Source of the DNA: Thermofilaceae archaeon
Lineage (GTDB): Archaea > Thermoproteota > Thermoprotei > Thermofilales > Thermofilaceae
Direction of reading: 5' to 3'
Assembly (NCBI GenBank): GCA_038861545.1
Contig: JAWCCZ010000004.1
Coordinates: 64,001-128,000, forward strand
DNA: 64,000 nt
In this document: positions 9,888-56,275 of the stretch, piece after piece
How positions within the stretch are numbered: the first letter of the stretch is position 1
Layout of the letters: every line of letters begins with the position of its first letter
Program-made: the position numbers and the translations under genes
The notes under the pieces: generated by a model
What the model was told of the DNA's origin: nothing
The model's input: only the letters and a program-made list of their open reading frames with translations
Database searches by the model: none

Positions 9888-9935
9888 GTTCTCAAGGGAA
9901 ATATTTTAACTGGTAGATAAATACCTCGTCTTTAT

Positions 9936-10793: not shown

Positions 10794-10833
10794 CAGCCGC
10801 ACTTTTAAATACGACTGTACAACTCTCACTTAT

Positions 10834-11565: not shown

Positions 11566-11570
11566 GCAGA

Positions 11571-12476: not shown

Positions 12477-12546
12477 ACCATTCACCCGTTGAGTAAGCAG
12501 AAAAGAAAAACAACACATAAAAACCTCTTGCAAATTGCCCATCTTG

Positions 12547-13875: not shown

Positions 13876-13979
13876 ACGTGACACTCGGTTTTTAACCGAT
13901 CTCACGGCTTTAAATAAGTAAAGTTGGGGAAACTTTATATTTGAAAGTTCATTTCCCTGTGGACGGAAAGGGGGTTAAA

Positions 13980-14423: not shown

Positions 14424-14613
14424 GATAATCCTACGAAAAAACGCGGATGAAACTACCAATCTCTTAGCTGTAAGCTCCGAAGCTCAGAGAATCATCATAG
14501 TAGTAGAAGCAGATGATAAAACTTCCGCTATAGAGAAGCTCAGGGATTTCCTTCTATCTAACATAGACAAAACGATCGTAGTTTACGCCAGTAACTTAGG
14601 TGGAGAGGGATGA
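14410..14613 (+). CDS. small hypothetical protein
   Basis: GGTGA SD; overlaps both neighbours (ATGA coupling to the radical SAM gene). Confidence 0.6.
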   Translation: MKETKIILRKNADETTNLLAVSSEAQRIIIVVEADDKTSAIEKLRDFLLSNIDKTIVVYASNLGGEG

Positions 14614-16169: not shown

Positions 16170-16183
16170 TATAGCTCACATAT

Positions 16184-17617
16184 TTAATATCTGAAACATA
16201 GGTCTACAATTAAGCTAGGGTAAGTACCTAAAACAATTAAAAGCAACGCTAGAACAAGCGGGGCAATCTGGATTATAGATAACCTATTTTCATGAGTTTC
16301 GAATCCCTTAGTAGTACCATAAAATACCTTTTTGAAAGTCGACAACCCATATGCCGCGGTAAGAGTAGACGAAACCAGTAATACAATACCCATTATAAAA
16401 CCGAAATACCCGCTATTTAGGCTAGTAGTAAATACTCCAAAAAATATCTCGAGTTCTGCCCAGAATCCTAGTGTGGGCGGTATTCCTGAAAGGCATAGGA
16501 ACCCGATAAACGCAGAAATAGCTGCTAAAGGCATGCGATCCGCTAAACCACCTAGCTTATCAATTAGCCTAGTATTCGTTTCCCTCTCTATGCACCCGGA
16601 TACCATGAACAACAAAGACTTAGCTATAGAATGTGCTATGAACATAAATGCAGCACTAGCTATGCCTACTTCGGCTCCACTGGTTATACCGAGTAACGCG
16701 TAACCGCTCTGGCTTACACTAGAGAACGCTAGCACTCTTTTTATATCTCTTTGAGATAAAGCCGCTAAACTTCCATAAATCATCGTCACGGCGGCCATTA
16801 CCATTAAGGTAGTCCTTAGGGGAGAAACTTCAAATGCATCCGGTGCAGAAAAAAGGAGAATCTTAGTTAAAGCCCAGTTGCCTATTCCGACTGCAAGCGT
16901 TAATTGTATCGAAACAGGTGTTGGAGCTTCGGAGTGTGCATCGGGCAGCCATGCATGCAATGGAAACAAAGCAGACTTCACTAGAGGTCCCGCAATTAAA
17001 AGCGATAGAGGAGCGATTACATCACTGGGAACCGCATTTTTTAAGACTTCTTTTAATTCTACAAACGCTAGAGTATGATACTGATCATATATTAACGCTA
17101 TACCAGCCATCGTAACGAGGGCACCTGCTTCAGTAAATAAAAGATACTTAAAACTGATACTTTTTGCTTCAGTTCCACCCCAGTAAAGGAGGAGAAGCCA
17201 TGAAGGTATGAGGAAAAACTCATAGAAGAGGAAGAACGTGGTTAAACTCCCAGAGAGCACCACTCCTACTAACGAAGAAGATGCTACTAAGTAGAGCGCC
17301 AGGAAAACGCTTGGATTCTCGAAATGATACATATAGCTAGATGCGTAAATCACCGAAAATGTGCAAATAATAAGTACTGTCAAAGCATAAATCACGTTGA
17401 AACCATCTCCCTCCAAAGTTATCAGGTATAGAGTAGGTTCAATATCGTAAACCTCCCGATTTGAAAAACCCTCATAAGCCTTTATGGCCTCTGGTACCAT
17501 AATAGAAATGGCTAAAATTAAAGAGGACACTGCTATAAACCCTCCTTTTCTCCAGTCCTTTGTCGCAAGCAATAAAGGAGCCGTTATCAGAGGCGCTACT
17601 ATGGAAGCCAGTAGCAT
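16184..17617 (-). CDS. proton-conducting antiporter-like subunit (NuoM-like)
   Basis: FYEFFLIP, VKSALFPLHAWLPDAHSEAPTP, KRVLAFSS, GFWAE. Confidence 0.88.
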   Translation of the reverse strand: MLLASIVAPLITAPLLLATKDWRKGGFIAVSSLILAISIMVPEAIKAYEGFSNREVYDIEPTLYLITLEGDGFNVIYALTVLIICTFSVIYASSYMYHFENPSVFLALYLVASSSLVGVVLSGSLTTFFLFYEFFLIPSWLLLLYWGGTEAKSISFKYLLFTEAGALVTMAGIALIYDQYHTLAFVELKEVLKNAVPSDVIAPLSLLIAGPLVKSALFPLHAWLPDAHSEAPTPVSIQLTLAVGIGNWALTKILLFSAPDAFEVSPLRTTLMVMAAVTMIYGSLAALSQRDIKRVLAFSSVSQSGYALLGITSGAEVGIASAAFMFIAHSIAKSLLFMVSGCIERETNTRLIDKLGGLADRMPLAAISAFIGFLCLSGIPPTLGFWAELEIFFGVFTTSLNSGYFGFIMGIVLLVSSTLTAAYGLSTFKKVFYGTTKGFETHENRLSIIQIAPLVLALLLIVLGTYPSLIVDLCFRY

Positions 17618-39431: not shown

Positions 39432-39965
39432 GTGTCACAAATGAGTCCAGAAGGGAGAATACTCTTAGATTACCCGTTAAGCGCAAAATCAGTTACTCTA
39501 AGGTTCTGCGTATCCGCGGTTGTTTCCTGCCTCTACCTGTATTTAGCGTTCCAAACGAACGAAAGCCTCTTTAACATAGGATTCCTAGTATCCTTCACCT
39601 TTCTCTTATTGTTTAGCCTTGTTTACAGAATTATAAACTTCTTAACAATTTATAAAACGATTATACTAAAAGGTGAATACCGAAAAGAGAAAAAAGGTGG
39701 ATGCATTGAATTACTTTATAATATTCTGTTATTTATTTCTCCATTCTTTTTATTTATTTTTATAAATTCTGTTTTAGCCTTAGGAATTTTATTTGGAGTT
39801 ATTTCGGCAGTAGGCATCTTAGATTCTTTATTTTACCTCTACGTGAAAAATAGGGAAGCTCATCTCGGTGGCCACTTCAAAGCTTTCATAGAAAAAGGGA
39901 ATAAACCTGGCTGCTATGTATGGGGTCTCAGCTTACATTCTGAGGACGAAATCGATAGGAGTTAA
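39432..39965 (+). CDS. hypothetical 4-TM membrane protein, AT-rich
   Basis: ORF with four hydrophobic segments; low GC. Confidence 0.6.
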   Translation: MSQMSPEGRILLDYPLSAKSVTLRFCVSAVVSCLYLYLAFQTNESLFNIGFLVSFTFLLLFSLVYRIINFLTIYKTIILKGEYRKEKKGGCIELLYNILLFISPFFLFIFINSVLALGILFGVISAVGILDSLFYLYVKNREAHLGGHFKAFIEKGNKPGCYVWGLSLHSEDEIDRS

Positions 39966-40754
39966 CCCAAACCTAGTTCCTACCATTACTTGGAGATGAA
40001 TCCTGCATGTGTTCTCCAGAAAGCATTCGAAAGTAGTATCTCCTGGTAGTTCTATAGCTTTGGTTAAATTTACACCGTCTTGGAATATTTTCAATCCAGA
40101 TGGGTAGTTATCAGCTACAAATCTAATGAGCTTAGACCCCTTATACACATAGTATCTTGTGAAAAACGCTGTTAAACCTTTTTTACTTTGCGTGTAAAGA
40201 TTTAACTTTAAATGAATAAATGATTTAGAATCCCTCAGAAAGTTGACTTCTATGAGTTTCACCGAGAAAGATTTTACGGCATATACTTCATAATACCAGT
40301 TTAGACATGAATTAATCGTAACCGGTAATGATAACAGCAAGAGAATAGTAGATAATTGAAACACTAGTTTCTTCGTCTTCGGCTTACTTTCTGCGATATA
40401 GCTGCTCATTACCAAAGTTATTACAGAAATAGGTGCTGCATATACCAAGTTGAATAAAATTACATTCTTAGTGATTACTAACGTTGCGAGGTCGCCTGAA
40501 ACGCTTCCCAGTAGTATATCGATAGGCAGTTTAGCTAACATCAAGGCTACAATTATGGAAAGGACTTGCGTTACGAAGTATATGGCAAAAGACTTCGTTA
40601 AATTTTCAGCAACCCAGCCTATAATTAGACTTGCAACTATAACCGGAATTAAGTACTCCGGCTGAGTGGATAACCCAGTGAAAGCCGACTGGAAAAAAGA
40701 CAAGAGATAAATGAAAAACGAGGATAAAGTTAATAGAACTACCTTAGATTTCAC
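39933..40754 (-). CDS. hypothetical membrane protein, coupled to the dppC-like gene
   Basis: About 5 TMs plus a beta-rich C-terminal domain; GTGA overlap with upstream stop. Confidence 0.65.
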   Translation of the reverse strand: MKSKVVLLTLSSFFIYLLSFFQSAFTGLSTQPEYLIPVIVASLIIGWVAENLTKSFAIYFVTQVLSIIVALMLAKLPIDILLGSVSGDLATLVITKNVILFNLVYAAPISVITLVMSSYIAESKPKTKKLVFQLSTILLLLSLPVTINSCLNWYYEVYAVKSFSVKLIEVNFLRDSKSFIHLKLNLYTQSKKGLTAFFTRYYVYKGSKLIRFVADNYPSGLKIFQDGVNLTKAIELPGDTTFECFLENTCRIHLQVMVGTRFGLTPIDFVLRM

Positions 40755-42178
40755 GTTAAACGCCTTGCCCTCAGTTTCGGGTTGAAAACCTCATCCAGGG
40801 TCTGCCCAATAAGAACAAAGCTCATAGCTAGCAACGTTATCATAACACCAGGCGGTACTACCCACCACCAGAGCATCCTGGAAAAAGCTCCGCTATAGCG
40901 GGCATTGTATAACATCCTTCCCCAAGATGGAACTCTCGGATCACCTAAATTCAAGAAACTGAGTGAGGATTCAAGCAGGATAGCGCCGGGTACATTTAGA
41001 ACAAGCGTGATGTAGACTATAGGCGTTAACTGGGGTAAGATGTGCTTAAAAAGTATATATACGTCACTTGCTCCTAAAGCTCGAGCTGCTTCTACAAAAA
41101 GCCTCTCCCTTAAGGACATTACGTAAGCTCTGCAATTCCTAGCAAATCCCATCCAGCTGAACAGCGCGATCAGGAATATTGTAATGTATAAACTTTTACC
41201 TATGAACACGCTTACAGCAATAAGTAAGGGAATCAAAGGTAGAAACATCAAAGTATCTGTAAAAAACATCAATATTTGGTCAACTAAGCCACCTTTATAC
41301 CCTGCTACAATTCCTACAACAAGTCCTAGTAGGACTGATACAACTGACGCTAGTATACCTACAATTAAGCTGACGCGTGTACCATGTATCAAATTCGAGA
41401 AAAGATCTCCTCCCAAGTTATCAGTCCCGAGAACACCGTAGGCTAATCCCGGTATCTTGAAGTATAATGGACTGACGGCTATTTTCACGTAGTTGTCTTC
41501 CCTGATCCTCGAGTAGATAACAATCTTTAGCTTGTATAGTCCCTTTTCAGCAAAGAGTTTCTCACCTAGATCGTCATAAGGCGAGAAACCTAAGGCTAGC
41601 TTAAGCGGTACATCTCTGGCATCAAAACGAGCAGATGGTTCAATGCGAGTTAAGTTGTATGATATTGCACCGCTATCATATATTTGATAGCTCTTTCCGT
41701 TAGGCACATCTAAGTAGAGCCTGATCCTCGCCGTCGAACCAAGCCCTCCAGCTACGGTTATGTTATAAGCGATTTCACCGTAAAAACCCTTGGGTGGGGA
41801 GTATGGGTATTCGAAGGAATAAATTAACGAGAGCTCTACTCTTCGCTCATCACTTTCCGGCGTAAATTCGCATAAAATCCAATCGTCTACGACGGTTAAC
41901 CTAGAGCAATTTCCTTCAACTTTCCATCTACTACCTACAATTTTCAACTCTATATTCTCAGGTAAATCCCTATATTGTGGGAAAGCTTTAAACCAGAATG
42001 GAACTGCGTAACCTTCCGCTAGGTTTATTTCATCGGGTTTGTGTGTCGCTATAAAATCAGCGAATATGCTTATTAATATAAACGTCAAAAGCAGGAAAAG
42101 ACCAAGCACACCCTTCTTGTACCTAGTAATACTTTTTATAATTTCGATTATGTTATGAAAAGTACTTGAGGTGCTCAC
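40751..42178 (-). CDS. dipeptide/oligopeptide ABC permease (DppC/OppC)
   Basis: LGTDNLG.D, EAARALGAS, SWGRML; large extracellular insertion. Confidence 0.9.
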   Translation of the reverse strand: MSTSSTFHNIIEIIKSITRYKKGVLGLFLLLTFILISIFADFIATHKPDEINLAEGYAVPFWFKAFPQYRDLPENIELKIVGSRWKVEGNCSRLTVVDDWILCEFTPESDERRVELSLIYSFEYPYSPPKGFYGEIAYNITVAGGLGSTARIRLYLDVPNGKSYQIYDSGAISYNLTRIEPSARFDARDVPLKLALGFSPYDDLGEKLFAEKGLYKLKIVIYSRIREDNYVKIAVSPLYFKIPGLAYGVLGTDNLGGDLFSNLIHGTRVSLIVGILASVVSVLLGLVVGIVAGYKGGLVDQILMFFTDTLMFLPLIPLLIAVSVFIGKSLYITIFLIALFSWMGFARNCRAYVMSLRERLFVEAARALGASDVYILFKHILPQLTPIVYITLVLNVPGAILLESSLSFLNLGDPRVPSWGRMLYNARYSGAFSRMLWWWVVPPGVMITLLAMSFVLIGQTLDEVFNPKLRARRLT

Positions 42179-43161
42179 CTCAGCCTCACCCTTGGATCTG
42201 CAAGAGCTATCAAAAGATCAGCTATGTAAAGGGATACAACTGTTAAGAAAATACTTATAAACAGAACACCTTGAACTACAGGGTAATCAAATTGCGTACT
42301 TGCCTCGAACAACCACCTACCTACACCATACCATGAGAAAATAGTCTCGGTAATTACGGCTCCTGACACTATACCCGGTAACGCGAGCGCTACAATTGTA
42401 ATGACAGGGGGAAGCACGTTCTTTAACACGTGTTTCACCATAATTTCTTTTTCATCGAGACCCTTAGCCCTCGCGGTGATAATGTAGTCCTCACCAAGCT
42501 GTGTTATAAACAAGCTTCTTATCAAAAGTGCGTAACCTCCTACCCCCACTATGATCAGGGTTAAGAGAGGCAAGGTCATGTGCCACAGAAAATCGGCTAT
42601 GTATAGAACAGGGTCCAATGGAGGTGGTCTACTGACACTTCCTGCTAGTGGAAATAACCTTAGATAAAATCCGAACACTAAGAGTAAGAGGAGGCCAAGG
42701 TAGAACGTTGGAAACGAGTTTAGAAGGACGCTGGTACCAATGAACGCTGTATCTATTTTTGTCCCTCTCTTCATAGCCAGCGTTAGACCAATAGCTAAAC
42801 CGAAGATTATTGTCAACACTGTTGAGGCTCCCAGCAGTATAACTGTGTTAGGCAACCTCTCCACTAATTCTGCTATAACGGGCCTACGAGTGTAGAAAGA
42901 GTAGCCAAGGTTACCAGTGAATAGGGCTAGTACGTACTTTACGAACTGCGCGTGTAAGGGCTCATCTAAACCGAACGCCTTTCTTATTAGTTCTTTCTGC
43001 TCGTTTGTTAAATTAGGATTCATAAAAAAGAACGATGGATCTATACCTAACACATAATAAGGTAAAACCCTTAAAAGAGCGAATTGCAGCACAAGGGCTA
43101 CGAAGAGGACCATTGCTCTATCTAGGGCTCTTTTCGCCATATACCTAGCTAAACCAGCCAA
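42175..43161 (-). CDS. dipeptide/oligopeptide ABC permease (DppB/OppB)
   Basis: GLDEP, LPNT..L, DYIITARAKGL, ETIFSW.GVG, DPRVR. Confidence 0.92.
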   Translation of the reverse strand: MAGLARYMAKRALDRAMVLFVALVLQFALLRVLPYYVLGIDPSFFFMNPNLTNEQKELIRKAFGLDEPLHAQFVKYVLALFTGNLGYSFYTRRPVIAELVERLPNTVILLGASTVLTIIFGLAIGLTLAMKRGTKIDTAFIGTSVLLNSFPTFYLGLLLLLVFGFYLRLFPLAGSVSRPPPLDPVLYIADFLWHMTLPLLTLIIVGVGGYALLIRSLFITQLGEDYIITARAKGLDEKEIMVKHVLKNVLPPVITIVALALPGIVSGAVITETIFSWYGVGRWLFEASTQFDYPVVQGVLFISIFLTVVSLYIADLLIALADPRVRLR

Positions 43162-43212: not shown

Positions 43213-45363
43213 TTATCCGCTAGATTTGCTTTTTTTCCTTCTAGTTAAGTAGAGAACGGCGATGATCACTACCGCAATGCCTATTGCTCCTAACGCTATA
43301 TAGGGTAGGTAGCGTTCCCAAGCCGGTCTGATAGTAATCGACACCGGTACTTCTTTTTCAAAGCTAGTTCCAGCTATTACAGCTGAACTGCGCACGAGTG
43401 CTTTGAAGCTTCCGCTAAGACCAGCTGTATCGAGAGACGCTTCATAAACTCCTCCTCCTTTATGGGCGGCTGAAACACTTTTCACAACGTTGTCATCACT
43501 AATCAATTGTAGAGATACAGTAGCATTTGTTAACGCGGTACCTGTGTAATCTGTTAACTTCACGGTAATTTGAAGGGAATCGCCCTCGTAAAGTGTAGTT
43601 TTCTGTAGAGTGTACTCTAACGTTAAAGTTTTAGCAGGATGCTTCTTCCAGTAGCCAGCATACCACTTTAGCAGGATATACTCACCAGGCTTCCTATCAG
43701 CAAATATGAAAGGCCCTGTCCCTATCAAGCACGTCAAACCACTTTTTGTAGGATGTGGAACTTTGCTTGGATCCCATTTCTCCCATCCGCCGTACTGCTC
43801 GAGTAGCGATTCGTTACCCCAGATGTGTGCGGGTACTAGTGCAACGTTAATGTCATAAAGATAGGTCCAGCTTGTGCCATTTATGTATGCAATAATTGTA
43901 TAGTCATCGGGTAGCTCGGTTTCTATCAACTCCTCGAAAACCTTGGCATATTGTTGAGTCGGTTTGTTTAACTTTATAAACCACCAAGTGAAGTTAACGT
44001 CTCTTGCTGTGAATTTTACGCCATCGTGCCATGTAACATTATTGTTTAAGTAAAATGTGATCTTAGTACTTGGATGACCCCCAATCTCCACTTCCTCCAT
44101 TTTCCATGATTTAGCCAACCAAGGCAAGTTATCTGAAACTTGATCGGGATGAGCTATGAAAAGTGACTCCAATACGTTGTTCATAACTGCCCACTCATCT
44201 CCGCTGATCGCCGTAAACGGGTTAAGAGTCCGTGGATCAGAGCCTAACGGCGTCTTATATGCTCCTCCAAATAACATGTTAGTGTGGTGCACATTTAATG
44301 TGGTGATGTAGGATTGCCCCCCAACAGGTTTTGAAAGAACAATTCCGGCTATATCAGTTCGGAATCCTACGTTAGCGATACCCATGTAAATCGGTATGTA
44401 GGGGAGGAGGTCAGCTACCTTCTCTTGAACTTTCCAGAGAGCTTGCTTAGCCTTGGATATATCCGCTGTATAATAGAACTGCTCCAGTAATTTATCAAGC
44501 TCGGGATCACTTATTCCCCAGAAATTCCAGCTACCGTCGGTCCTGAAAAGCTCGTATGCCAGTGTGGGAACCCTATCCCAACCTAAATATAAAATAAACG
44601 ACTTGAAGGTCTTGGAGTATATCTGGGCTACTAGAGCTTGAAACTCTATGGCTTCTATTTCAATCGGTAAACCTACGCTACGACCCTCTTCAATTATGTG
44701 CTGAGCTTCTTGATACAACCATGGAGCTTGCTCTTGAGGAGGAACCTGAATAATTATTTTTCCAAGCTCCCTACCGTTAGGTTCATACCACTTACCGGTT
44801 TTTTCATCAAATATAAAACCGGCGTCTAGCAATACCTTTTTAGATAATTCCCTGCTGAATGGATAACTAGGTACATCCGGGTTAGACCAATCCCCGAAAG
44901 CTGGAGGTATAGCGGCCTCCACTGGTACGCCGAAACCATTGAAAACATTTCTGATAATCCAATCTCTATCAATAAGGTGGGCTACAGCCTTTCTAACAGC
45001 TGTATAGTTCCACGGATATTGCTGACAGTTTATTCCGAGAAATTGTAGATTAAAGGTTTGATATGATAATAGGTATATGTTTGGATCATCTTTAACCTCT
45101 GAAATCCTTGCTGGCTGGACAAAACATGTATCCAAGTCGCCTTTCTTGAAAGCCATTAATCGAGCATCGTAGTCTAAAATCACGGGCATTAAAGTTTCAT
45201 CGACACGTGGACCATAGGGTTCCCAGCTCCATGTCTCCTGCTCGGGAGGGATTGGCGCTGGGCAGACAGTTGTTACCGAAATAAGTGTCAAAATAATTAC
45301 CAGCGTTGATAAGAGTTTCCCGTCATTTAAACTAGTTTTTTTGATAATTTTGCCTCTCTTCAT
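43213..45363 (-). CDS. family 5 ABC substrate-binding protein with C-terminal Ig-like domain and TM anchor
   Basis: Signal peptide; VRKAVAHLIDR, TLNP, WHDG.KFTA.DV.FT, GTGPF; C-terminal TM plus basic tail. Confidence 0.88.
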   Translation of the reverse strand: MKRGKIIKKTSLNDGKLLSTLVIILTLISVTTVCPAPIPPEQETWSWEPYGPRVDETLMPVILDYDARLMAFKKGDLDTCFVQPARISEVKDDPNIYLLSYQTFNLQFLGINCQQYPWNYTAVRKAVAHLIDRDWIIRNVFNGFGVPVEAAIPPAFGDWSNPDVPSYPFSRELSKKVLLDAGFIFDEKTGKWYEPNGRELGKIIIQVPPQEQAPWLYQEAQHIIEEGRSVGLPIEIEAIEFQALVAQIYSKTFKSFILYLGWDRVPTLAYELFRTDGSWNFWGISDPELDKLLEQFYYTADISKAKQALWKVQEKVADLLPYIPIYMGIANVGFRTDIAGIVLSKPVGGQSYITTLNVHHTNMLFGGAYKTPLGSDPRTLNPFTAISGDEWAVMNNVLESLFIAHPDQVSDNLPWLAKSWKMEEVEIGGHPSTKITFYLNNNVTWHDGVKFTARDVNFTWWFIKLNKPTQQYAKVFEELIETELPDDYTIIAYINGTSWTYLYDINVALVPAHIWGNESLLEQYGGWEKWDPSKVPHPTKSGLTCLIGTGPFIFADRKPGEYILLKWYAGYWKKHPAKTLTLEYTLQKTTLYEGDSLQITVKLTDYTGTALTNATVSLQLISDDNVVKSVSAAHKGGGVYEASLDTAGLSGSFKALVRSSAVIAGTSFEKEVPVSITIRPAWERYLPYIALGAIGIAVVIIAVLYLTRRKKSKSSG

Positions 45364-45427: not shown

Positions 45428-46417
45428 TTAACGTAACAAGTGGCAGGCTGCGAAATGCTCCTTCTCAACTTCAACGCTGGGGGGCTCCTCACTACGACAA
45501 ACATCCATAACGTAAGGACACCGAGGATGAAAACGACAACCAGAAGGAGGATTAATTGGCGACGCTACTTCTCCTATTATAGGGATTTCTCCTATTTTAA
45601 CGCGGGGGTCAGGTGTTGGAATTGCTGTGATAAGGGCTTTTGTGTAGGGGTGAGCTGGACTATCTATCACCTGCTGCGAGCCCCCTATTTCAACAATCTT
45701 TCCGAGGTACATGACCGCTATTCTATCGCTAATGTGTTTAGCTAAAGCTAAGTCATGAGTTATAAATAGGTAAGCTACCCTGTGTTTTTCCCGTATGTCC
45801 AGTAATAACTTCAAGATACTGGCGCGAATTGACATATCTAACATAGAGACCGGTTCATCAGCTACTATGAAATTCGGCCTGAGGATTATCGCTCTTGCGA
45901 TAGCAACTCTCTGTCGCTGACCACCGCTAAGCTCATGTGGGTACCTATTTAAAAAGTTCTCAGGAGGAGTTAACGCCACTTCTTCTAGAGCTTTGATGAC
46001 CATTTCGACTTTCTCCTCCTTGCCGTTAAGGTTGCCATGTATGGCTAGAGGTTCGGCAACGATATCTATGATTCGCATCAAGGGATTTAGAGATTCATAA
46101 GGGTCTTGAAAAATTATCTGTGCTTTCCTCCTAAATTCTTTTAGTTCAACACCTTGAACCGTGGTAACGTCTCTGCCCTCAAAGAGTATTTTACCGCTAT
46201 CAGGTTCCTCTAACCTTATACTCAGACGGCCTGTGGTAGTCTTACCGCAACCAGATTCACCTGCTAGGCAAAATATCTCCCCAGCTTTAACATCAAAGCT
46301 TATACCATCGACGGCCTTAAGGTATACTAGTGTTCTCCTACTTAATATGTCACTTAAACCGCGTCTCATAGGAAACCATTTCCTAATATTTACAACTTTA
46401 ATTAGTGGCTCACTCAT
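45428..46417 (-). CDS. dipeptide/oligopeptide ABC ATPase (DppF/OppF)
   Basis: [40 protein letters not shown], Cys-rich C-terminus. Confidence 0.93.
45440..45556. repeat. perfect intragenic repeat, copy 1 (117 bp identical to 46435-46551)
   Basis: Direct base-by-base comparison. Confidence 0.95.
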
Positions 46418-47388
46418 GCGTACTCACCAAGTAGGTGGCAGGCTGCGAAATGCTCCTTCTCAACTTCAACGCTGGGGGGCTCCTCACTACGACAAACATC
46501 CATAACGTAAGGACACCGAGGATGAAAACGACAACCAGAAGGAGGATTAATCAAGCTAGGCGGCTGCCCAACTATGTACTTGAATGTCTTCTTCGGTTCT
46601 TTAATGCTGGGAACGGCGCTAATTAAAGCTTGAGTGTAAGGGTGACTGGGGTTTAAAAAAACAGCCTCTGTACTACCACTTTCCACGAACTTGCCAGCAT
46701 ACATGATAGCCACTTTATTGCTTACTTCCGAAATAACCGAGACATCGTGGGAAATAAACACTATTGAGAGCCTTAGTCTTTCCTTTAACTCCTTTAGAAG
46801 CTTAAGTATTTGAGCCTGAACTATCACATCAAGTGCCGTAGTGGGTTCATCTGCTATTAAAACCCTAGGATTTAGAGCTAAGGCCATGGCTATAACCGCT
46901 CTTTGGCGCTGCCCTCCGCTAAGTTCAAAGGGGTATCTCTTAAGGGTCGACCTATCTAACCCCACCATTTCCAGCAAGTCAGCCGCCTTCTCCAGAGCTT
47001 CCTTCTTCGCAATCCCATCTACATGAACGATTATGGCTTCAGCTATTTGCTCTCCAACCTTGATTACAGGGTTAAGCGCGTTCATGCTACCTTGGAAAAC
47101 CATCGATACCTTTCTCCAGCGGATCTCTCTTCTCAGCTTATCCTCCGGTAAACCTACTATATCCATGCCGTCAAGTACTATTCTCCCACTCACAATCCGC
47201 GCGTTTGAGGGTAGGATCTTTAGTAAGGTCATCGCCAAGCTCGATTTTCCGCAACCGGACTCACCAACTATTCCTAACGACTCTGCTTCGCCCAATGAAA
47301 AGTCAACTCCATCAACTGCTTTTACAGTCTCACCATCAACACCGTAGTACATCTTCAGGTTCTCGACAGCCAACAACATCCTAGGCAC
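46414..47388 (-). CDS. dipeptide/oligopeptide ABC ATPase (DppD/OppD)
   Basis: [31 protein letters not shown], Cys-rich C-terminus. Confidence 0.93.
46435..46563. repeat. perfect intragenic repeat, copy 2 (46435-46551 matches copy 1; 46463-46563 matches copy 3)
   Basis: Direct base-by-base comparison. Confidence 0.95.
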
Positions 47389-47791
47389 CTTTAACTAGAA
47401 TCTGGGGTAAACTTAAAGGAATTATAAACTTTTAGCGAACCTTCTATGAATACTTTTAATATAATCTTATGTACCTTCATGGATAAAAGTAAATCCTCAG
47501 TTAAAAACTCTATGCAGGAACTAGCCTTTTAGAGTTGTAAAAGCATGGCTTGACTATTCGGTTCAACCATCAATTAATATCATTGGCCTTTAGTTAAGGT
47601 CCCATTCCTTGTTGAACTTGTAGATGGAGCCTGAGCACAAAGTTAGAGAAAACTGATGGCGGTAATCCTTTCTTCTCTAATTGATTGGTTTATGCTGAGC
47701 AGCTTCGTGGCCTACTTTAGCAATGATAATGGTCGCTCTGAAATAATGGTAGAACTTTCGGCTTCTATCTCACAGTTTAAAAAGCAATGAA

Positions 47792-48346
47792 CTATGGTTT
47801 GAAATCCCTCTCTAAGCTTCGCTGAGGTGATGACCGGATATGGTAAATTAGCGCATAAGATCCGTACATGAGCGATATGAGCCCGGCAAGTGATAAGACT
47901 AAAGTAGCTATGTCAAGCATTAGTAGTCTATCGTAATCTACGCTGAAATATCTCACAGAGACAACGCCGTTCACCTCACAGGAAACACATTGCAATATCA
48001 GTAGCGCCTTCTCTGGGGCTTCACTTAGCAATAGACTTCCTTCCTTAAGTAACCTGGTTCCTGTGCCAGCATTTAATAAGCCAACCGTGCTATTATCGCG
48101 CATAAACTTTATCGTAGCGTTAAGAAGCCCGGTTGATGAAAAGTTTAAAAAATAGAATACCCTCTCGCTAGTCGCACCCGGTAGCTGTAAAATAACGCTC
48201 CTTTCGCCCTCTAAACTGAGATTAAAGCTTTCCTCGTTCAATTGATGAGGAGAAACGTAGTATGAGGTATAAAACGAAATAATTAACCCTATAGTTACGA
48301 ATACTATTCCAGTCACAGCCATGAAAACATACTTACTTTTTCGCAT
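47792..48346 (-). CDS. hypothetical membrane protein (TM - beta-rich extracellular domain - TM)
   Basis: ATG 48346 overlaps the end of the upstream ATPase; two hydrophobic helices. Confidence 0.65.
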   Translation of the reverse strand: MRKSKYVFMAVTGIVFVTIGLIISFYTSYYVSPHQLNEESFNLSLEGERSVILQLPGATSERVFYFLNFSSTGLLNATIKFMRDNSTVGLLNAGTGTRLLKEGSLLLSEAPEKALLILQCVSCEVNGVVSVRYFSVDYDRLLMLDIATLVLSLAGLISLMYGSYALIYHIRSSPQRSLERDFKP

Positions 48347-49298
48347 AGAGCCAGCATTTAACATAGTGTCCAGGTTTCACTTCAACGCTGGGGGGCTCCT
48401 CACTACGACAAACATCCATAACGTAAGGACACCGAGGATGAAAACGACAACCAGAAGGAGGATTAATCAAGCTAGGCGGTGTACCAGGGATAAACTCAAG
48501 CTTTTTATCGGCTCTAAGCGTTGGCACGCTAGCCATCAACTTCTGAGCATAGGGATGCTTCGGACTGGTGTAGAACTCTTCGCTTTCCGTAAACTCTATA
48601 ATCTCTCCGGCGTACATAACAGCCACCTTGTCAGCTAACTCGCTTGAGAGAGCTACATCATGAGTTATAAAGATGTAATTTACACCGGTTTCAGATTTAA
48701 CTGACTTCAGTAAGTTCATTATATTCGCTTGAGTTATTACATCGAGAGCAGAGGTAGGTTCATCCAGTATAATGACATCGGGCTTCATTATAAGCGCCAT
48801 AGCTATTACAGCCCTCTGCTTCATACCACCGCTTAGCTCAAACGGGTAACGCTCGGCAAAGCTTTCATGGACGCCAACCATCCTAAGGTACTTCTTAGCT
48901 TCTGAAAGAGCTTCCTCCTTGGATATACCGTTGTGGATCATAAGGGGCTCAGCTATCTGGAACCCAATTTTCAAAACCGGGTTTAACGAATTCTGGGCGG
49001 CTTGAAAAACAATAGAAATTTTTCTCCATCGAATTTCTTTACGAAACTCTTCTTCATCTAGTTCCATGAGATCCTGACCGTTAAGGAAGAGCTGCCCGTC
49101 AAAGGTATGGATATTGCGTGGAAGTAAGCGTATGATCGCCCTAGCCAGCGATGTTTTTCCACATCCGGACTCGCCGACTATCGCTAAGCTTTCACCCCTG
49201 TATAAATCAAAACTAACCTTATCGACTGCTCTTACTATCCCCTTTCTTGTAGCATAGTAGAGGCGTAGATCTTTGATACTTAAAATAGTTTCAGGCAT
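48333..49298 (-). CDS. second DppD/OppD-type ABC ATPase
   Basis: [38 protein letters not shown], Cys-rich C-terminus. Confidence 0.93.
   Translation of the reverse strand: MPETILSIKDLRLYYATRKGIVRAVDKVSFDLYRGESLAIVGESGCGKTSLARAIIRLLPRNIHTFDGQLFLNGQDLMELDEEEFRKEIRWRKISIVFQAAQNSLNPVLKIGFQIAEPLMIHNGISKEEALSEAKKYLRMVGVHESFAERYPFELSGGMKQRAVIAMALIMKPDVIILDEPTSALDVITQANIMNLLKSVKSETGVNYIFITHDVALSSELADKVAVMYAGEIIEFTESEEFYTSPKHPYAQKLMASVPTLRADKKLEFIPGTPPSLINPPSGCRFHPRCPYVMDVCRSEEPPSVEVKPGHYVKCWLYAKK
48379..48479. repeat. perfect intragenic repeat, copy 3 (101 bp identical to 46463-46563)
   Basis: Direct base-by-base comparison. Confidence 0.95.
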
Positions 49299-49308
49299 GC
49301 AACCACCC

Positions 49309-50748
49309 TTACATCTCTCTTAGCCTCGGGTTAACTATCTTATCCAAGGCAAACCCTAAGAAAGCAAAAGCAAATGAAGTAATCATTAACATTATAGCTG
49401 GTTCGAGCACCCAGTAGTATAGACCTCGATAAAGTGCACCGTTAGTGTTAGCATCATTTAGGACTTTACCCCATGTTGGAAGGAATGGATCCCCAAGCCC
49501 AAGAAATGATAATGAAGCTTCGAGGAAAACATACCCAGGAACAGCTGATACTAAGCCGGGTATTACTGGCGGAAGGATTTTAGGAATTATGTAGAAAAGT
49601 ATGATCCTAAAATCGGAGGCACCATAGGCCTGAGCGGCTTCAATATAGGGGTACTCTTTTATCTGCATAACGAGAGCTCTTGTACCCTTAATCCCACCCC
49701 CGAAGATACTTAAAACTATTACCACCGCAAGAATAACCCAAATATCTAATTTATAGAAAACAGAAATCATTATGAGGAATGGCAGGAACGGCAACACCAT
49801 GTAAACCTCGGTTATCCTCTGGATAAGAGAATCTACCCACCCACCGTACCAGCCGCTTATCGTCGCGATTAATAACTGGATGAACGTTGTAAGTAGAGAT
49901 GCTGTTAAACCAAAAGCTAAGGCGATTGGAGCCCCCCAAAGTAAAGGTATTTCTAGCGGCCTTCTAAGGTGATCAGTTCCAGCTGGTCCGTGAACCGTAC
50001 CGTAGACCACCGCCCTAGCGTCAAAGCCCGTTTGCGCGCCGAAAACCACTGCCTCGATCACTAACTTATAAGTCCCTTTCTCCACTTCGAATTCGCCGCC
50101 TTCAAGCGAGGTTTCATCAACTTTTCCGAAAAGAAGTTTAAGTACAGTAAGCCTTTCACTAGTGTTTACCGAGTATTTTTCACTATAGAAGCTGGTTAAA
50201 GTCTTGAGTATATTATTACTTATTGAAATATATAGCTTATCATCGGGGGCCCCTAAACCATACTTCACTATAGTGATACTGTCACCGCTAGGTTTTATCC
50301 AATTGATTGTCACTAAAGGCGCTCCAACCCCTGAAAAGTTTGAAAAGAGGAAAACATTGAACTCGCTCGGCAGCTCGTCAAAATCGTATGTAAACCTGAA
50401 CTCTAAAACTATTTTTTTCATATCTAGACCTGGTATCTCTATTTCAGCTTTACTTACATAAGGCGAACGAACACGTGAATCAAGTAAGATAGTTTTAGGG
50501 AGCCTTTTACTGGAGAAAAACTGGATCCACTCCGGTGCTGCTGTGCGTGGATTATCGATCCACATAGCTTCCTGACCTCTCCACATCCTGATAGCCTTGT
50601 CGTAAGGTATTACTAGGATCGTGTATATGGATAAAAAAACTAAGAATATAAGTATCCCTATACCTATTGCCCCTGATTTATAAGATAAGACTTCCTTGAT
50701 AATGCCCTTGCCCCTTCCCTCCCTGGTAGAGCTCATACTCTCACCCAA
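49309..50748 (-). CDS. second DppC/OppC ABC permease
   Basis: GTD..RR, YIEAAQAYGAS, TWGKVL, NPRLR; large extracellular insertion. Confidence 0.9.
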   Translation of the reverse strand: MGESMSSTREGRGKGIIKEVLSYKSGAIGIGILIFLVFLSIYTILVIPYDKAIRMWRGQEAMWIDNPRTAAPEWIQFFSSKRLPKTILLDSRVRSPYVSKAEIEIPGLDMKKIVLEFRFTYDFDELPSEFNVFLFSNFSGVGAPLVTINWIKPSGDSITIVKYGLGAPDDKLYISISNNILKTLTSFYSEKYSVNTSERLTVLKLLFGKVDETSLEGGEFEVEKGTYKLVIEAVVFGAQTGFDARAVVYGTVHGPAGTDHLRRPLEIPLLWGAPIALAFGLTASLLTTFIQLLIATISGWYGGWVDSLIQRITEVYMVLPFLPFLIMISVFYKLDIWVILAVVIVLSIFGGGIKGTRALVMQIKEYPYIEAAQAYGASDFRIILFYIIPKILPPVIPGLVSAVPGYVFLEASLSFLGLGDPFLPTWGKVLNDANTNGALYRGLYYWVLEPAIMLMITSFAFAFLGFALDKIVNPRLREM

Positions 50749-51805
50749 ACTGAGCCTTTATCCTAGGATCAAGAAGACCATATGTTAGATCGAGTATTAA
50801 GACCGTTGCCATTAGAAGATAAGCGTAAATTACGGTTATACCTAGTATCACAGGTGTGTCAAAGTACTGTATTGCCCTCATGGTCACTAGCCCTAAACCT
50901 GGCCACTCGAAAACGGTTTCTGTAATTATCGCACCACCCCACGAGCCAATAAGACCTAAAGCTAAACCTGTCACTATAGGTGGCAATGAAGGTCTAAGTA
51001 TATATCTGGTCTCTATTAGCCTAGGTGGGAGACCCTTCGCTTTTGCAGCCTCAACGTAGTCCTCGGTCGAGAAAATCAAGAAAAAAGTGCGGTTACTATA
51101 TACACCAAGGAAAAACCCAGAAATTATCCATGAAAGCATCGGTAAAACCATATGTTTTAACACGCTGAATGCATACAGTATCGGATCCTTTGGGGGAGGG
51201 GTATCTACAAACCCTCCGGGTGGCAGAAGGTAAAGCCAAGAATAAAATATCAATATGAGAAATATACCGTAAAACCAGCCAGGAATAACAGACGTTGGTG
51301 CCAGCGATATAACCAGCTTATCGAATCGGCTTCCATGATGTCTGGAAAGGTATAATCCCAAGAAAAGGTGTAGAAAGAAATTGATTAGTGTAACAGTCGT
51401 GAAAAGTATAACTGTTGCAGGCAGCCTTTCTAGGATTATGTTTTTAACTAGGCGTGAACCTGCATCGCTAGTCATGAAAAGCGCCCGTCCTAAATTTAGG
51501 CTTAACGCATCACGCAGGTAAGCTACACTCCTAATTAAGAAAGGTTGATCATAACCAAGTCTTTTTATTTCGTTTTGATAAACTTGTTCTACTATTTTAT
51601 CTCTCTCAGCACCGGATAGAACCCTATATGCGGGGTTCCTGTTTATACTATCTTGGATACTGGTTCGCAAATCAGCCTTAATCAATTCGTCAACTTTGCC
51701 GCCCATATTTGCAACTAGGATAGTCAAATAAGTTGCTATAATCATAGTAATGAACAACGTTACTCCTCTTTTGATTATATATTTCATTAAACCCTTTACA
51801 GCCAT
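50741..51805 (-). CDS. second DppB/OppB ABC permease
   Basis: LPAT.IL, DYVEAAKAKGL, ETVFEWPGLG, DPRIK. Confidence 0.92.
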   Translation of the reverse strand: MAVKGLMKYIIKRGVTLFITMIIATYLTILVANMGGKVDELIKADLRTSIQDSINRNPAYRVLSGAERDKIVEQVYQNEIKRLGYDQPFLIRSVAYLRDALSLNLGRALFMTSDAGSRLVKNIILERLPATVILFTTVTLINFFLHLFLGLYLSRHHGSRFDKLVISLAPTSVIPGWFYGIFLILIFYSWLYLLPPGGFVDTPPPKDPILYAFSVLKHMVLPMLSWIISGFFLGVYSNRTFFLIFSTEDYVEAAKAKGLPPRLIETRYILRPSLPPIVTGLALGLIGSWGGAIITETVFEWPGLGLVTMRAIQYFDTPVILGITVIYAYLLMATVLILDLTYGLLDPRIKAQFG

Positions 51806-51811
51806 ATATTC

Positions 51812-51855
51812 TTAGCCCTCTTTAAGGGCTAATATAAAAACCTTTATCCGGATAA
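51812..51855 (-). promoter_or_regulatory. promoter of the second dppB with TATA box flanked by two palindromes
   Basis: Minus-strand AAAGG-TTTTTATA about 27 nt upstream of ATG 51805; TTAGCCCT-N5-AGGGCTAA (51812-51832) and TTATCCGGATAA (51844-51855). Confidence 0.55.
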
Positions 51856-52074
51856 GGCCATACCACAGCTGGCACCTGCCTACGCCAGTCTAATCTGTAT
51901 ATAATAAATATTTTTTAATTTATTGCAGTAATTCATTAAAAATTATTTAATTAACTAAAGTTATGTAAGCCAAACAGACTGAAAAGTACATGCTATCCTG
52001 TTGAACTATACTTTTATTATCGAAATACTTCAGAAGATTAAAAATTAGTTTGAAAAACAAAAATAAAATACTGT

Positions 52075-54741
52075 TTAAGTCTTTGGTTTCCTGATCATCG
52101 GTAACGCAAGAGATGAGATAGCTAGAATTATGGCTAGGACGGCTAAAGCCATAAGGAGACTTGCATTAGACTCCAGTGATTCGACCCGGTTTTCAATGCT
52201 TTCGAGCCTGGATGTGACGCTTTGCTCTAGGCTATTGATTTTTGCTTCACTACGTCCGAGTACTGTCATCAGGTAAGCTAATTGCGGGATAGTTATGAAA
52301 GAGGCCTCAGTCGTAGCTGGCATGGCGACATCTTTGCTTAAAGCGAATGTTAGCACACGGTACGTGCCTGGAGCCAACTTCCCGGTTTCTAAGCTGCCTA
52401 GCGTGACGCTCCAAACACCATCGGCTTTTGCAGTAGCATCCCCTTTAGCTATTACGTTGCCTTCGCTATCTAGTACCATATACTTAATAAATTCTATCTT
52501 GTTAACAGGGTAGGGCTGTCCCTTATAACTAACCCTAAACGTTATCGTAGCCTCAAGGCCTGGCACAACGTTCTCTGGAACCTCTACCTTCACCTCTGGA
52601 ATTGGGGGTTCAGCTAGCCAAGCCCATCTATCGGCCTTGTCTGGATAGTTTCTAAAGGCTTTGTGAACAGCTGTGTGCGCCGTGTAGTCGACACTATCTA
52701 GGTAGAATGGTCCATCGCCAACCCAGAAGTGTTTATGGGCCTCGTACCAAGATTTTAATGTTTGGTACCTTGCTTTTGCCTCATCCTGTGTTATGTATTG
52801 AGAGTTAAACTCTGGGAATGGTATGTACCCAGTTGTAATGGCTTCCTCTAACATTTCAGATAAAATATCTAACGAGGGCCCACCTATGTAGTTCATCCAC
52901 TCAACCTTCATTTTATCTGCCTTATCTGCGCTAAATGCTAACAGTCCTTTCTCTTCCGCTTTAACACCAATAGCCGTTATATGCCACGGGTGATTTGGCC
53001 AGCCTGCAAAAGAGGAAACAATAAACTCTGCTTCAGGGTTTGTGTAATTTACATAATACTCAACTATAAATGGTGACGTACTTACAACCCTCCAAGCCAC
53101 GAAGTACTGCCTCCATGAAGTAAAGCCAGGCAGTGCGGATTCATCGTAAAGTGGGCTGTCAGGATCAACCCTGTAGAACGTTAAAGGCCAACTCCAGACC
53201 CAATCCGCTAAAGTTAAGGTGGTACCATCGTGATACTTAATCTTACCCAGTATGTCACCATAATTACAAATAATTCTAGCCAAAGCGGCCTTCGCTCCAG
53301 CCTCATCTGCAGTAACGACTTTTTTAGCCTTTGTATCATAAGCGTACCAAGCATCAGCTGGCACTTCAATTTTATCGACAAAAGTTAGTTTTAACCAGTC
53401 ACTGGAAGCTATAGTGGAAACATCTTTGGAAACATATAGTTCAGCCTTCACTAGTCTTTCCGGCATTGGCATACCAGTATATGGATTTATGAGAAAAGCA
53501 TAGGATTCAGTTGGCGTTATAAGGACACTATCATAGGCCCAGTTTGTTCCTGCAACCGTGTTCCAAGGATCAACTAAGACTTCTCTATTGCCAGCTCTAA
53601 AAGTACCTCCTACCTTATCGATAAACCTGGCGGTCCTAGACCACAGAGCTGCAGAGAAACCACCACTTAAGTCGGCTGCTATGGTAACGTCTTTCCTGTA
53701 AAGATAAGGTACAATTTGGTCAACAAGCCAAATTCGAACAGAATCTTTGAGAGCCAGCTCGGCAGCCTTTGCCATTAACTCTTGCCTTTCTTCAATAGAA
53801 GTGAAACCCCTTTCCCAAAGCTTTTGTGCTACCTCATAAAATATCGGATCTGGCTTGTACGCCTGCCATAAGGGCTCGGGTCTACCAAGCGGTGTGTAGA
53901 AATAACCCCATACATCAGCATCATCTCTGCTCACGGCTGAGGTAATCCAGCCTCCAGTGTAAAAATGCCATTGACCGTCAGCTAGATTACCCCTAAGCCA
54001 TATTGGGGAAGCCTCTCTCGAAGTCTTATACATGCGCTCAACAGTAAAGCCCAGCTTCTCCAATTGATCGGATACGTAGTCGCCGATCTGCCTCCTCTGA
54101 TCCTCAGTCCTAATCAATGCTTTAAGAGTAATCGGCTTACCTTTATAATACCATTTCCCTTCCCTAAACTCACAGCCCATTTTAACAAGTTCCTCGAATA
54201 TAACCGTCTTAGCTCTCTCTGGGTTATAGGAGTAAGTTGCTTCCAGCGTTTTCACGACGTCAGCGAGTTTAGCATAGTCGGGGAAAGCTGAAACTAAAGG
54301 TAGCCACTTGGGTTTAGCGAAGCCGAGCATTATTTCATCGGTTACATATTTCCTATCAATAAGCCAGTTCATAGCTTCCCTGATCTTTGGATTAGAAAAC
54401 GGGTTGAAACTACCGTCTTTAAACTCGGGACCTACAGGGTTAAAAGTTATTTCAAAGTATAGGCCGAACGCGTACTTGTAGCCTAAGTTTGGATCAGTTT
54501 TTATTCTTTCAACTAACTTCGGATCGGCACGTACATCGATAAAGTAGGCATGAATATCACCTTTACTAATCATATCTACGACTTTCGCCGGCTCACTTTC
54601 TTTAACCCAGACCACTTCATCAAGCCACGGTCCATAGGGAACTTCTGCCTCAGGAGCAGCCGAGACAGGGATTAAAAAAGCGAAAGTACTTGCGATTATT
54701 ATCAAAGCCAGCATTAAAGCTTTCGTTTTTTTGTTTCTCAT
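52075..54741 (-). CDS. large archaeal family 5 ABC substrate-binding protein with C-terminal Ig-like domain, coiled coil and TM anchor
   Basis: Signal peptide; NPF...IREAMNWLIDR, YHDG, GDGPFYL; C-terminal TM. Confidence 0.88.
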   Translation of the reverse strand: MRNKKTKALMLALIIIASTFAFLIPVSAAPEAEVPYGPWLDEVVWVKESEPAKVVDMISKGDIHAYFIDVRADPKLVERIKTDPNLGYKYAFGLYFEITFNPVGPEFKDGSFNPFSNPKIREAMNWLIDRKYVTDEIMLGFAKPKWLPLVSAFPDYAKLADVVKTLEATYSYNPERAKTVIFEELVKMGCEFREGKWYYKGKPITLKALIRTEDQRRQIGDYVSDQLEKLGFTVERMYKTSREASPIWLRGNLADGQWHFYTGGWITSAVSRDDADVWGYFYTPLGRPEPLWQAYKPDPIFYEVAQKLWERGFTSIEERQELMAKAAELALKDSVRIWLVDQIVPYLYRKDVTIAADLSGGFSAALWSRTARFIDKVGGTFRAGNREVLVDPWNTVAGTNWAYDSVLITPTESYAFLINPYTGMPMPERLVKAELYVSKDVSTIASSDWLKLTFVDKIEVPADAWYAYDTKAKKVVTADEAGAKAALARIICNYGDILGKIKYHDGTTLTLADWVWSWPLTFYRVDPDSPLYDESALPGFTSWRQYFVAWRVVSTSPFIVEYYVNYTNPEAEFIVSSFAGWPNHPWHITAIGVKAEEKGLLAFSADKADKMKVEWMNYIGGPSLDILSEMLEEAITTGYIPFPEFNSQYITQDEAKARYQTLKSWYEAHKHFWVGDGPFYLDSVDYTAHTAVHKAFRNYPDKADRWAWLAEPPIPEVKVEVPENVVPGLEATITFRVSYKGQPYPVNKIEFIKYMVLDSEGNVIAKGDATAKADGVWSVTLGSLETGKLAPGTYRVLTFALSKDVAMPATTEASFITIPQLAYLMTVLGRSEAKINSLEQSVTSRLESIENRVESLESNASLLMALAVLAIILAISSLALPMIRKPKT

Positions 54742-54847
54742 CGTAATCCTTTCTTAAAAGAGCTTTATATTTCTTACTTTATTTAACTTGAGGAGTTTAA
54801 CATGTAAAGCCAACTACTTATTAATAAGAGTCGTAGAGACAGGCACT

Positions 54848-56275
54848 GTGCGCGGAACCATGGCGTTAATTATTATTATACTATTGCTTCTAGCAACCTC
54901 TGTTAGCCAGCCTGCTCAATTGAGCTTTAAGGGAGCTAGGGTAACCGCTAACGGTCAATTGCTTGCATACGGCCAAGCCGAGTTAGATGGAATGCTTCAC
55001 CCTCTTTTAGTTTTAATTGACATTAGTCGCGGTACGGTGTTCTCTGCTTATCTCGAACTTGATACAAAAGGGGTTTTTCTGGATGCAGTTGAAGACAACT
55101 TAAGTATAGTTTCTGTTGGATATTTTCAGGATTCGCCCTTCAGCCGCTCAATGCTATTTGCTGAGTTTCGCAGTAATGAATCAAGCTATGAGATAACTCG
55201 TGTGTTGAAGTTAAGCTCCGGTTTCGGAGATATAGCTAAGTCGGTAGCTTTCTTACGCAATGGCTGCGTCATCGCTGGTTTAAGCCAGAACCCGGATACC
55301 GGTGTAAGCGATCTGGCGGTTATTACCCTCAAAGGAAACGGTGAAGTTAGCGAAGCAACTTCTTTTGGCGTACCTTACTACCATAGCTTCGTGGAGAAAG
55401 CATATGTAGTAAATGAGGGATTACTACTTGTCGGCGCTACATGGAGCTATAATGTGTCAATGTCGGATGTCCTAGTAGTATACGTTAATGGTTCTAGAAT
55501 AATCCATGCCTTAACCTTGGGTGGAGCCGATGTGGATGAAGGATTAGCTGCTTTACATGACTTCAATGAAGCAATAGTGTTAGTTGGATCGACGAGAAGC
55601 TCCTCAAAAGGCTACAGTGATAGTTTTTACGCTGTTACGAGTAAAGATAGCATTAGAGTCGTGGCTTTCGGAACTCCCAGCTATGATGGCTTTATCGACC
55701 TTCTACCTTTTAACGGTAAGCTGTACCTTCTAGGCTACACTGTCTCAAAGGAGCGAGAAATCGGTGTAATTCTTCTAGTAAAAGAAAGTAAACCTCTCAA
55801 GGCTGTTGCGGTGACCTGCGACCGAGACCTTGTACCTTTAGCTATCGGTCAACGCGAAGGCCATATAGTTGCAGTTTTTAACAGTGAAAACTCACTGTTA
55901 ATTTTAACGCTCGATGAAGAGCTGAAACCGTTGAATGCATCATTGATAGGCTATGCTGCTATTGAATGCATCAATGTACTTGAGTTAAATGATCTCGAAG
56001 ACCACTGCGAAGATCTGACCAATAAATATATCATACGCGGTCAGTCCTTGGTTTCGAGAAATATTCCCCTGACTGTGGGAGAACTTAAAGCATCGATAGG
56101 GAAAGTAGATTTACCGGTTAAAAACTTAAAAATAGTAGCTGGTAAGTTCGAGGAAAAGGAGCCATTTCTAGAAGTCATTGTGAAAGTTATCGAGGGGAAT
56201 ATCCCTCTTCTCGTGGCGCTACTCCCACTAGTTGCTATTTTAATTGCACTCATAATGGCTAAGCATAGAAGGTGA
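54848..56275 (+). CDS. hypothetical surface protein, probable beta-propeller with C-terminal TM anchor
   Basis: Signal peptide; repeated G..D...../lvG.T.S/SD blade-like motifs; C-terminal TM plus KHRR; start uncertain (GTG 54848 or ATG 54860). Confidence 0.6.
   Translation: MRGTMALIIIILLLLATSVSQPAQLSFKGARVTANGQLLAYGQAELDGMLHPLLVLIDISRGTVFSAYLELDTKGVFLDAVEDNLSIVSVGYFQDSPFSRSMLFAEFRSNESSYEITRVLKLSSGFGDIAKSVAFLRNGCVIAGLSQNPDTGVSDLAVITLKGNGEVSEATSFGVPYYHSFVEKAYVVNEGLLLVGATWSYNVSMSDVLVVYVNGSRIIHALTLGGADVDEGLAALHDFNEAIVLVGSTRSSSKGYSDSFYAVTSKDSIRVVAFGTPSYDGFIDLLPFNGKLYLLGYTVSKEREIGVILLVKESKPLKAVAVTCDRDLVPLAIGQREGHIVAVFNSENSLLILTLDEELKPLNASLIGYAAIECINVLELNDLEDHCEDLTNKYIIRGQSLVSRNIPLTVGELKASIGKVDLPVKNLKIVAGKFEEKEPFLEVIVKVIEGNIPLLVALLPLVAILIALIMAKHRR

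Follow-up and report, generated by a model that had tools for sequence, protein, structure and literature searches.

We identified tracts of identical nucleotide sequence at the 3' ends of three otherwise diverged ATPase genes for ATP-binding cassette (ABC) importers in a hot-spring Thermofilaceae archaeon (assembly GCA_038861545.1, designated G000). Judging from the sequences and their phylogeny, the tracts are very probably products of concerted evolution, in which gene conversion restricted to a single domain acts among ancient DppD and DppF paralogs. The genes lie within a window of 64,000 nucleotides (nt) of contig JAWCCZ010000004.1, whose numbering is used throughout unless another locus is named. 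All genes concerned are encoded on the minus strand and belong to two adjacent operons for family-5 ABC importers of the peptide or oligosaccharide type. ATPase A (45428-46417, 329 amino acids (aa)) is the DppF-type subunit of operon 2 and is placed in ortholog group F2 by the core protein tree described below. ATPase B (46414-47388, 324 aa) is the DppD-type subunit of the same operon, and its stop codon overlaps the start of A. ATPase C (48333-49298, 321 aa) is the DppD-type subunit of operon 1, and no DppF gene is found downstream of it in the G000 assembly. The three genes were assigned from the list of open reading frames (ORFs), Pfam matches and the core tree. Each encodes an ABC_tran domain (PF00005, E = 5e-30 to 8e-28), the Walker A motif GESGCGK[TS], the signature ELSGG, and a C-terminal oligo_HPY domain (PF08352) that scores 70-78 bits against a cut-off of 27.1.

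Direct string comparison shows that positions 45440-45556 in A are identical to 46435-46551 in B (117/117 nt), and that 46463-46563 in B are identical to 48379-48479 in C (101/101 nt). A core of 89 nt is common to the three genes (45468-45556, 46463-46551 and 48379-48467). These identities had been described in an initial annotation of the window and are exact; the bases adjoining each tract differ, and a repeat search and a three-way alignment agree with the string comparison. All three tracts lie at the 3' ends of their genes. The tract in A encodes 39 residues that include all four cysteine ligands of a putative iron-sulfur (Fe-S) motif. The tract in C, identical to B over 101 nt and to A over 89 nt by alignment and whole-genome search, covers the first three cysteine codons, with the fourth just outside. 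The tract in B (46435-46563) is a mosaic of an A-identical part and a C-identical part, so that the middle copy does share one flank with each neighbor and the ends are staggered, as had been observed.

The identity is confined to the tails. Over 939-963 aligned nt the gene pairs are only 53-56% identical, and in 2000 column shuffles the longest identical run had a mean of 10-11 nt and a maximum of 23 nt, which excludes chance as the source of runs of 117, 101 and 89 nt. Third-codon-position identity is 0.30-0.34 in the cores, indicating saturation, and 0.71-0.93 in a 42-codon tail window. The earlier remark that the three genes use different synonymous codons even at ELSGG and Walker A is likewise correct. 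A search of the whole G000 genome (12 contigs, 1.63 Mb, 92% complete) recovered exactly these three copies of the 89-mer. G000 encodes about ten Dpp/Opp-type ATPases, and the expectation that most of its dppD and dppF genes would carry the 89-mer therefore fails; homogenization is local. A second candidate repeat family (D2, 33 nt, 82%) was rejected as merely the conserved FITHD region.

The tail of each ATPase contains four cysteines with the spacing C-x5-C-x6-C-x17-C. In the cryo-electron microscopy structure of E. coli DppBCDF, the [4Fe-4S] ligands of DppD are Cys284, Cys290, Cys297 and Cys315, and the cluster of each of the DppD and DppF subunits is required for stability of the complex (PMC12136057). 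The spacing of 5, 6 and 17 residues in A, B and C equals that of E. coli DppD. A predicted [4Fe-4S]-binding motif thus fits the ligand spacing of E. coli DppD and DppF, in line with the assignment made in the initial annotation. The E. coli proteins share both the oligo_HPY domain and the cysteine spacing with those described here. However, that work concerns structure and complex stability, and it describes no nucleotide-level homogenization of the subunit genes (PMC12136057).

The third codon positions of the tail (45491-45556 and its equivalents in relatives) are about 70% pyrimidine and poor in A. The favored pyrimidine is T in G000 (0.51-0.56) and C in a same-genus genome, G001 (0.44-0.51), tracking genome GC content. 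This bias is mostly a consequence of a composition rich in Cys, His, Phe and Pro and carries no signal specific to conversion. GC-biased conversion was also considered and rejected, as tails exceed cores in GC content whether or not the genome is a converted one.

Cores and tails in related genomes

The comparison that carries the interpretation is with G001 (CALHPJ010000001.1), an uncultured Thermofilaceae metagenome-assembled genome (MAG). G001 is collinear with G000 over both operons at 79-82% nucleotide identity, with synonymous divergence (dS) of 0.7-1.4 between orthologs and a ratio of nonsynonymous to synonymous divergence (dN/dS) of 0.03-0.10. Its locus contains four ATPase genes, C', F', B' and A'. 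Within G001 the tails of C' and F' are identical at 139/140 positions and those of A' and B' at 122/122, and tails from different operons are 97-98% identical. However, the tails of G001 and G000 are only about 78-82% identical to each other, a value equal to that of the surrounding DNA. Within G000 the tract shared by A and B has no differences in 117 nt, whereas dS between the two species is about 1; the last conversions must therefore be very recent relative to the split and separate in each lineage.

Trees were built with 43 ATPase genes, including two pairs from the genome G012; the 20 genomes sampled belong to the family and order. Four ortholog groups emerge from the core protein tree with 96-100 support in the Shimodaira-Hasegawa-like approximate likelihood ratio test (SH-aLRT), and in the approximately unbiased (AU) test the core data reject genome clades (p = 3e-7 for G000 and 1e-38 for G001). 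In the tail nucleotide tree, copies group by genome or by pair in G000, G001, G007, G008, G012 (both pairs), G017, G019 and G031. In AU tests on the tails, ortholog clades are rejected for both the A group (p = 0.033) and the B group (p = 0.0095), and a single clade is not rejected for the G000 copies or for the G001 copies. The initial annotation had proposed domain-restricted gene conversion and had named as its test that cores should cluster by ortholog and tails by genome; this is what the trees show, with AU tests in both directions.

In G001 the 140-nt repeat of C' and F' continues beyond the stop codon and takes in the start of the following, overlapping gene (8723-8766 and 9705-9751 on the reverse complement of locus L024, G001:C1:96000-114000). 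Since the repeat covers the starts of the genes that follow, the DppF ATPase and an unrelated membrane protein, ORF190, share their first residues (MSSAGSTR...). Shared N-terminal residues in these two proteins are also seen in G009 and G017 (MQSNAGSTRR...).

Distribution and proposed course of exchange

Long identical runs between adjacent DppD and DppF genes are found in several relatives, with lengths of 115 and 144 nt in G012, 124 nt in G017, 111 nt in G019, 110 nt in G031, 77 nt in G008 and 68 nt in G007. Runs of only 8-29 nt are found in G004, in G010 and in each of the eight genus-g6 genomes, where DppD and DppF have distinct tails, each conserved by ortholog. Outside the family, G041 has a tail pair identical at 114/114 positions. 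This genome, from another family of the class (7 contigs, 97% complete), is the best-assembled positive case; its tail pair is at 293-406 and 1332-1445 of locus L230 (G041:C3:76400-78400). Homogenized tails were also identified in Ca. Methanodesulfokora washburnensis (125/125), a Desulfurococcales MAG (98/98) and a Thermoprotei MAG (114/114), and the tail pair of a Thermoproteota MAG is 91.7% identical over 121 nt. The homogenized lineages include several other Thermofilaceae genera, a Korarchaeon, a Desulfurococcales MAG and other Thermoprotei. These comparisons of assembled genomes show independent homogenization of the same tail region in several archaeal lineages. None of the bacterial loci in two 80-locus scans is homogenized, although these loci were picked by similarity to archaeal queries and give no fair estimate of frequency. 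A metagenome scan with protein C recovered no contig from the same species, the best match having 74% aa identity.

Elsewhere in G000, a DppD/DppF pair on contig C1 carries its own identical tract of 76 nt, which encodes 25 residues and has no sequence relationship to the tract in A, B and C (427090-427165 and 428078-428153 of that contig, or L232:591-666 and 1579-1654), and the two pairs on contig C2 carry no identical tract. The C1 pair also has a 32-nt near-identical run in the region of the signature motif. A search for its ortholog in G001 and four genomes of genus g9 found nothing closer than 65%, and the related loci examined are not homogenized. Identity across operons is found in G000 and G001, where the operons are about 2 kb apart. 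The two G012 pairs lie on different contigs and are homogenized within pairs only. The three copies of the 89-mer, the separate tract on C1 and the restriction of cross-operon identity to adjacent operons indicate that exchange is local and dependent on distance.

We propose that 30-45 codons spanning the C-terminal four-cysteine motif are repeatedly overwritten from copy to copy by short-patch, non-reciprocal homologous recombination. The partners are direct repeats 1-3 kb apart, either within one operon or, only if the operons are adjacent, between two. Where DppD and DppF are unconverted (ten pairs), similarity over 60-nt windows peaks at the tail (17 residues), with 75% identity compared with 52% overall, and Walker A comes next with 64%. 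The longest exact match in these pairs (19-29 nt) falls in the tail in six of the ten. As the tail is the most similar stretch of the two genes even in unconverted genomes, it would be a natural homology seed. After a first conversion identity would rise and further exchange become easier, so that the state could sustain itself without selection on identity.

The mosaic in B records part of this history. The segment that B shares with C (PPSLINPP...VEV) is of the operon-1 type (that of C and F'), as found in genus g9 (13 residues). The 3' end of the tract shared by A and B (11 residues) is of the operon-2 type, as in G012. The combination of both types in B implies a minimum of two events that overlapped, of which one was an exchange between operons and another an exchange within operon 2.

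Absence of the operon-1 DppF gene and rival explanations

Relative to G001, G000 is without exactly one 985-nt repeat period, which corresponds to the operon-1 DppF gene. Positions 47849-48479 align to 8239-8869 on the reverse complement of L024, the side of the F' tail and ORF190, and positions 48340-55999 align to 9715-17334, the C' side. The junction segment of 140 nt (48340-48479, minus strand) thus aligns to both copies of the G001 C'/F' repeat, which are themselves identical at 139/140 positions (8730-8869 and 9715-9854). The C-terminal residues of C (...YAKK) match those of F' and not those of C' (...YAKGG). Orthologs of the operon-1 DppF are present in G001 and all other relatives sampled and are found nowhere in the G000 assembly; given its presence in all sampled relatives, the absence in G000 is a derived state.

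A crossover outcome of the same tail pairing would have removed the gene, and whether such a deletion really took place in G000 is in our estimation an even call. Misassembly induced by the repeat would look the same. An assembler could step through a 140-nt perfect repeat, and the remaining 850-nt unique piece could then be lost at binning; the N-runs found at exactly these repeats in two relatives indicate that assemblers struggle here. The operon-1 binding protein and permeases are intact and under purifying selection (dN/dS 0.04-0.07 compared with G001), and this constraint is equally compatible with a loss that is recent, with one that is tolerated and with an artifact. Of the suggestion in the initial annotation that transporter modules are deleted through the tract, the loss of exactly one repeat period is therefore suggestive only. 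In G009 (L047, G009:C2, 4824-5360) and G003 (L049, G003:C2, 4285-5376), N-runs beside the homogenized repeats break the DppF gene and the DppD tail, respectively. The apparently truncated DppF of G009 was considered as a second deletion and rejected as a scaffold N-gap, and the absence of the DppD tail in G003 is also due to an N-run.

Several observations weigh against gene conversion and the deletion ascribed to it. Every genome with homogenized tails is a MAG or a draft assembly, 12 closed genomes of the class with about 37 pairs among them have no homogenized tail, and the DppF deletion rests on a single assembly. All tract identities were read from assembled sequences, and the contrast between draft and closed genomes would be expected, as would the N-runs in G003 and G009, if the tails truly differ and an assembler or polisher collapsed them or copied one tail into the others. 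We consider this artifact very unlikely. Given the way k-mer assemblers work, they join only k-mers present in the reads and could not create 117 identical bases from tails that are about 70% identical. Homogenized tails recur in many independently produced assemblies with differing styles of contig naming, and the copies in G001 keep 1-3 differences and hence were not collapsed. In addition, the genus g6 drafts G021 and G022 lack homogenized tails just as the closed genomes of that genus do, which ties the pattern to the genus and not to the type of assembly. At most, an artifact would have raised an identity of about 97% to 100%, which leaves the conclusion unchanged.

Gene conversion must also be weighed against selection acting on the tails. 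Identity could be kept by selection on a nucleotide-level element within the coding sequence, such as an RNA structure, a small RNA target or a translational-coupling signal. The downstream gene has an overlapping start that the tracts adjoin and, in some pairs, cover, and third positions in the tracts are strongly biased toward pyrimidines. However, a shared element predicts conservation between species, and the tails of G000 and G001 differ by about 20%, like the flanking DNA, yet are identical within a genome. The tract shared by A and B stops short of the stop codon, and the pyrimidine bias follows aa composition, with the preferred base tracking the GC content of each genome. No Rfam match was found, a permissive threshold yielding only a chance small nucleolar RNA hit (E = 0.86), and the predicted fold is not unusual (z = -1.0). 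Such an element is extremely unlikely to explain the tracts. It is also rather improbable that conversions are fixed by selection for identical Fe-S tails in partner subunits, whether for symmetry of the heterodimer or for ATPases interchangeable between adjacent transporters, as opposed to neutral, self-sustaining conversion. The tract does coincide with the four cysteine ligands, and the E. coli complex requires the cluster of each subunit for its stability (PMC12136057). Furthermore, if the loss of DppF is real, C would need a partner, and A is encoded 2 kb away. Operon 1 is still under strong purifying selection. However, function does not depend on identical tails: in genus g6, and in the closed genomes of the class, DppD and DppF have clearly different tails, and each is conserved by ortholog. 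Selection of this kind may contribute to the conversion we describe, but it is not needed.

A more far-reaching interpretation appears doubtful to us. Among thermophilic archaea of the Thermoproteota and Korarchaeia, the Fe-S tail would then be a hotspot of recombination that recurs, sustains itself and also remodels transporter operons, with DppF excised here and C either homodimeric or borrowing the neighboring DppF with its identical tail.

Known systems and neighboring genes

The tufA and tufB genes are the textbook case of concerted evolution by gene conversion. Conversion of a 3' segment takes place between outer-membrane paralogs of Helicobacter pylori such as babA and babB. As in the archaeal ATPases, intragenomic recombination gives them identical 3' segments and divergent 5' parts, and the same repeats mediate gene loss or the formation of chimeras. 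However, those genes serve bacterial surface-antigen variation under diversifying selection, whereas the genes described here encode ATPases of archaeal housekeeping transporters and show no sign of an antigenic or phase-variation logic. Another case is that of the subunit paralogs of the archaeal chaperonin (thermosome), among which Archibald and Roger reportedly found gene conversion in the early 2000s. Those paralogs too are archaeal, form one hetero-oligomer, and are converted in only part of the gene and in several lineages. They belong to another protein family and are much more similar overall, whereas the present tract is very short and lies in adjacent genes of one operon that are otherwise 50% identical.

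Gene conversion is an established cause of concerted evolution among prokaryotic paralogs, with 26 recurrently converted genes described in one survey (PMC6053082). The cases in that survey resemble ours in that paralogs are closer within a genome than orthologs are between genomes, in their occurrence in several lineages, and in being explained by non-reciprocal homologous recombination. The survey does not mention ABC, opp or dpp genes. In contrast to the cases it describes, only 75-150 nt of about 1 kb are homogenized here and the remainder is synonymously saturated, and the partners are two different subunits of one heterodimer and not duplicates with one function. A literature search for gene conversion together with oppD, oppF, dppD or ABC transporters in archaea found no description of Dpp/Opp ATPase tails. 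It is well supported that the tails represent a clean new example of a known process, recurrent and mechanistically ordinary, and not a new kind of system.

For hyperthermophilic archaea, the tails document short-patch gene conversion in nature with great clarity. As tracts of 75-150 nt with sharp borders stand in otherwise saturated genes, the lengths, borders, direction and distance-dependence of conversion can be read directly from genomes. Inclusion of the oligo_HPY tail will mislead phylogenies and orthology calls. The repeats also break or mislead short-read assemblies, as in the N-gaps of two relatives and possibly the gene loss in G000, and where downstream genes overlap the tail, their start regions become identical too. 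If the loss of DppF is real, repeats maintained by conversion can prune ABC transporter operons, which raises the question of whether ATPase subunits are shared between adjacent importers.

The remaining genes of both operons adjoin the ATPase sets, are encoded on the minus strand, and were assigned from the ORF list and Pfam matches. Operon 1 includes a family-5 binding protein (52075-54741, SBP_bac_5) and two permeases (50741-51805 and 49309-50748). Operon 2 likewise includes a family-5 binding protein (43213-45363, SBP_bac_5) and two permeases (42175-43161 and 40751-42178). The gene order of operon 2 is unusual, with DppD and DppF followed by the binding protein and the two permeases; in operon 1 the binding protein and permeases precede DppD and, where present, DppF.

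ORF190 (47792-48364, minus strand) encodes a conserved predicted membrane protein without a Pfam family, identified from the ORF list, Pfam and comparison with relatives. In G000 it lies directly 3' of C, its start overlapping the end of C; in relatives from several genera it lies downstream of the operon-1 DppF. The protein is 71% identical in aa sequence to its G001 ortholog (dN/dS 0.19). Operon 2 also ends in a predicted membrane protein without a Pfam family, ORF273 (39933-40754), which is kept in G001. Together, the two membrane proteins show about 71% aa identity and dN/dS of 0.17-0.19 in the comparison with G001.

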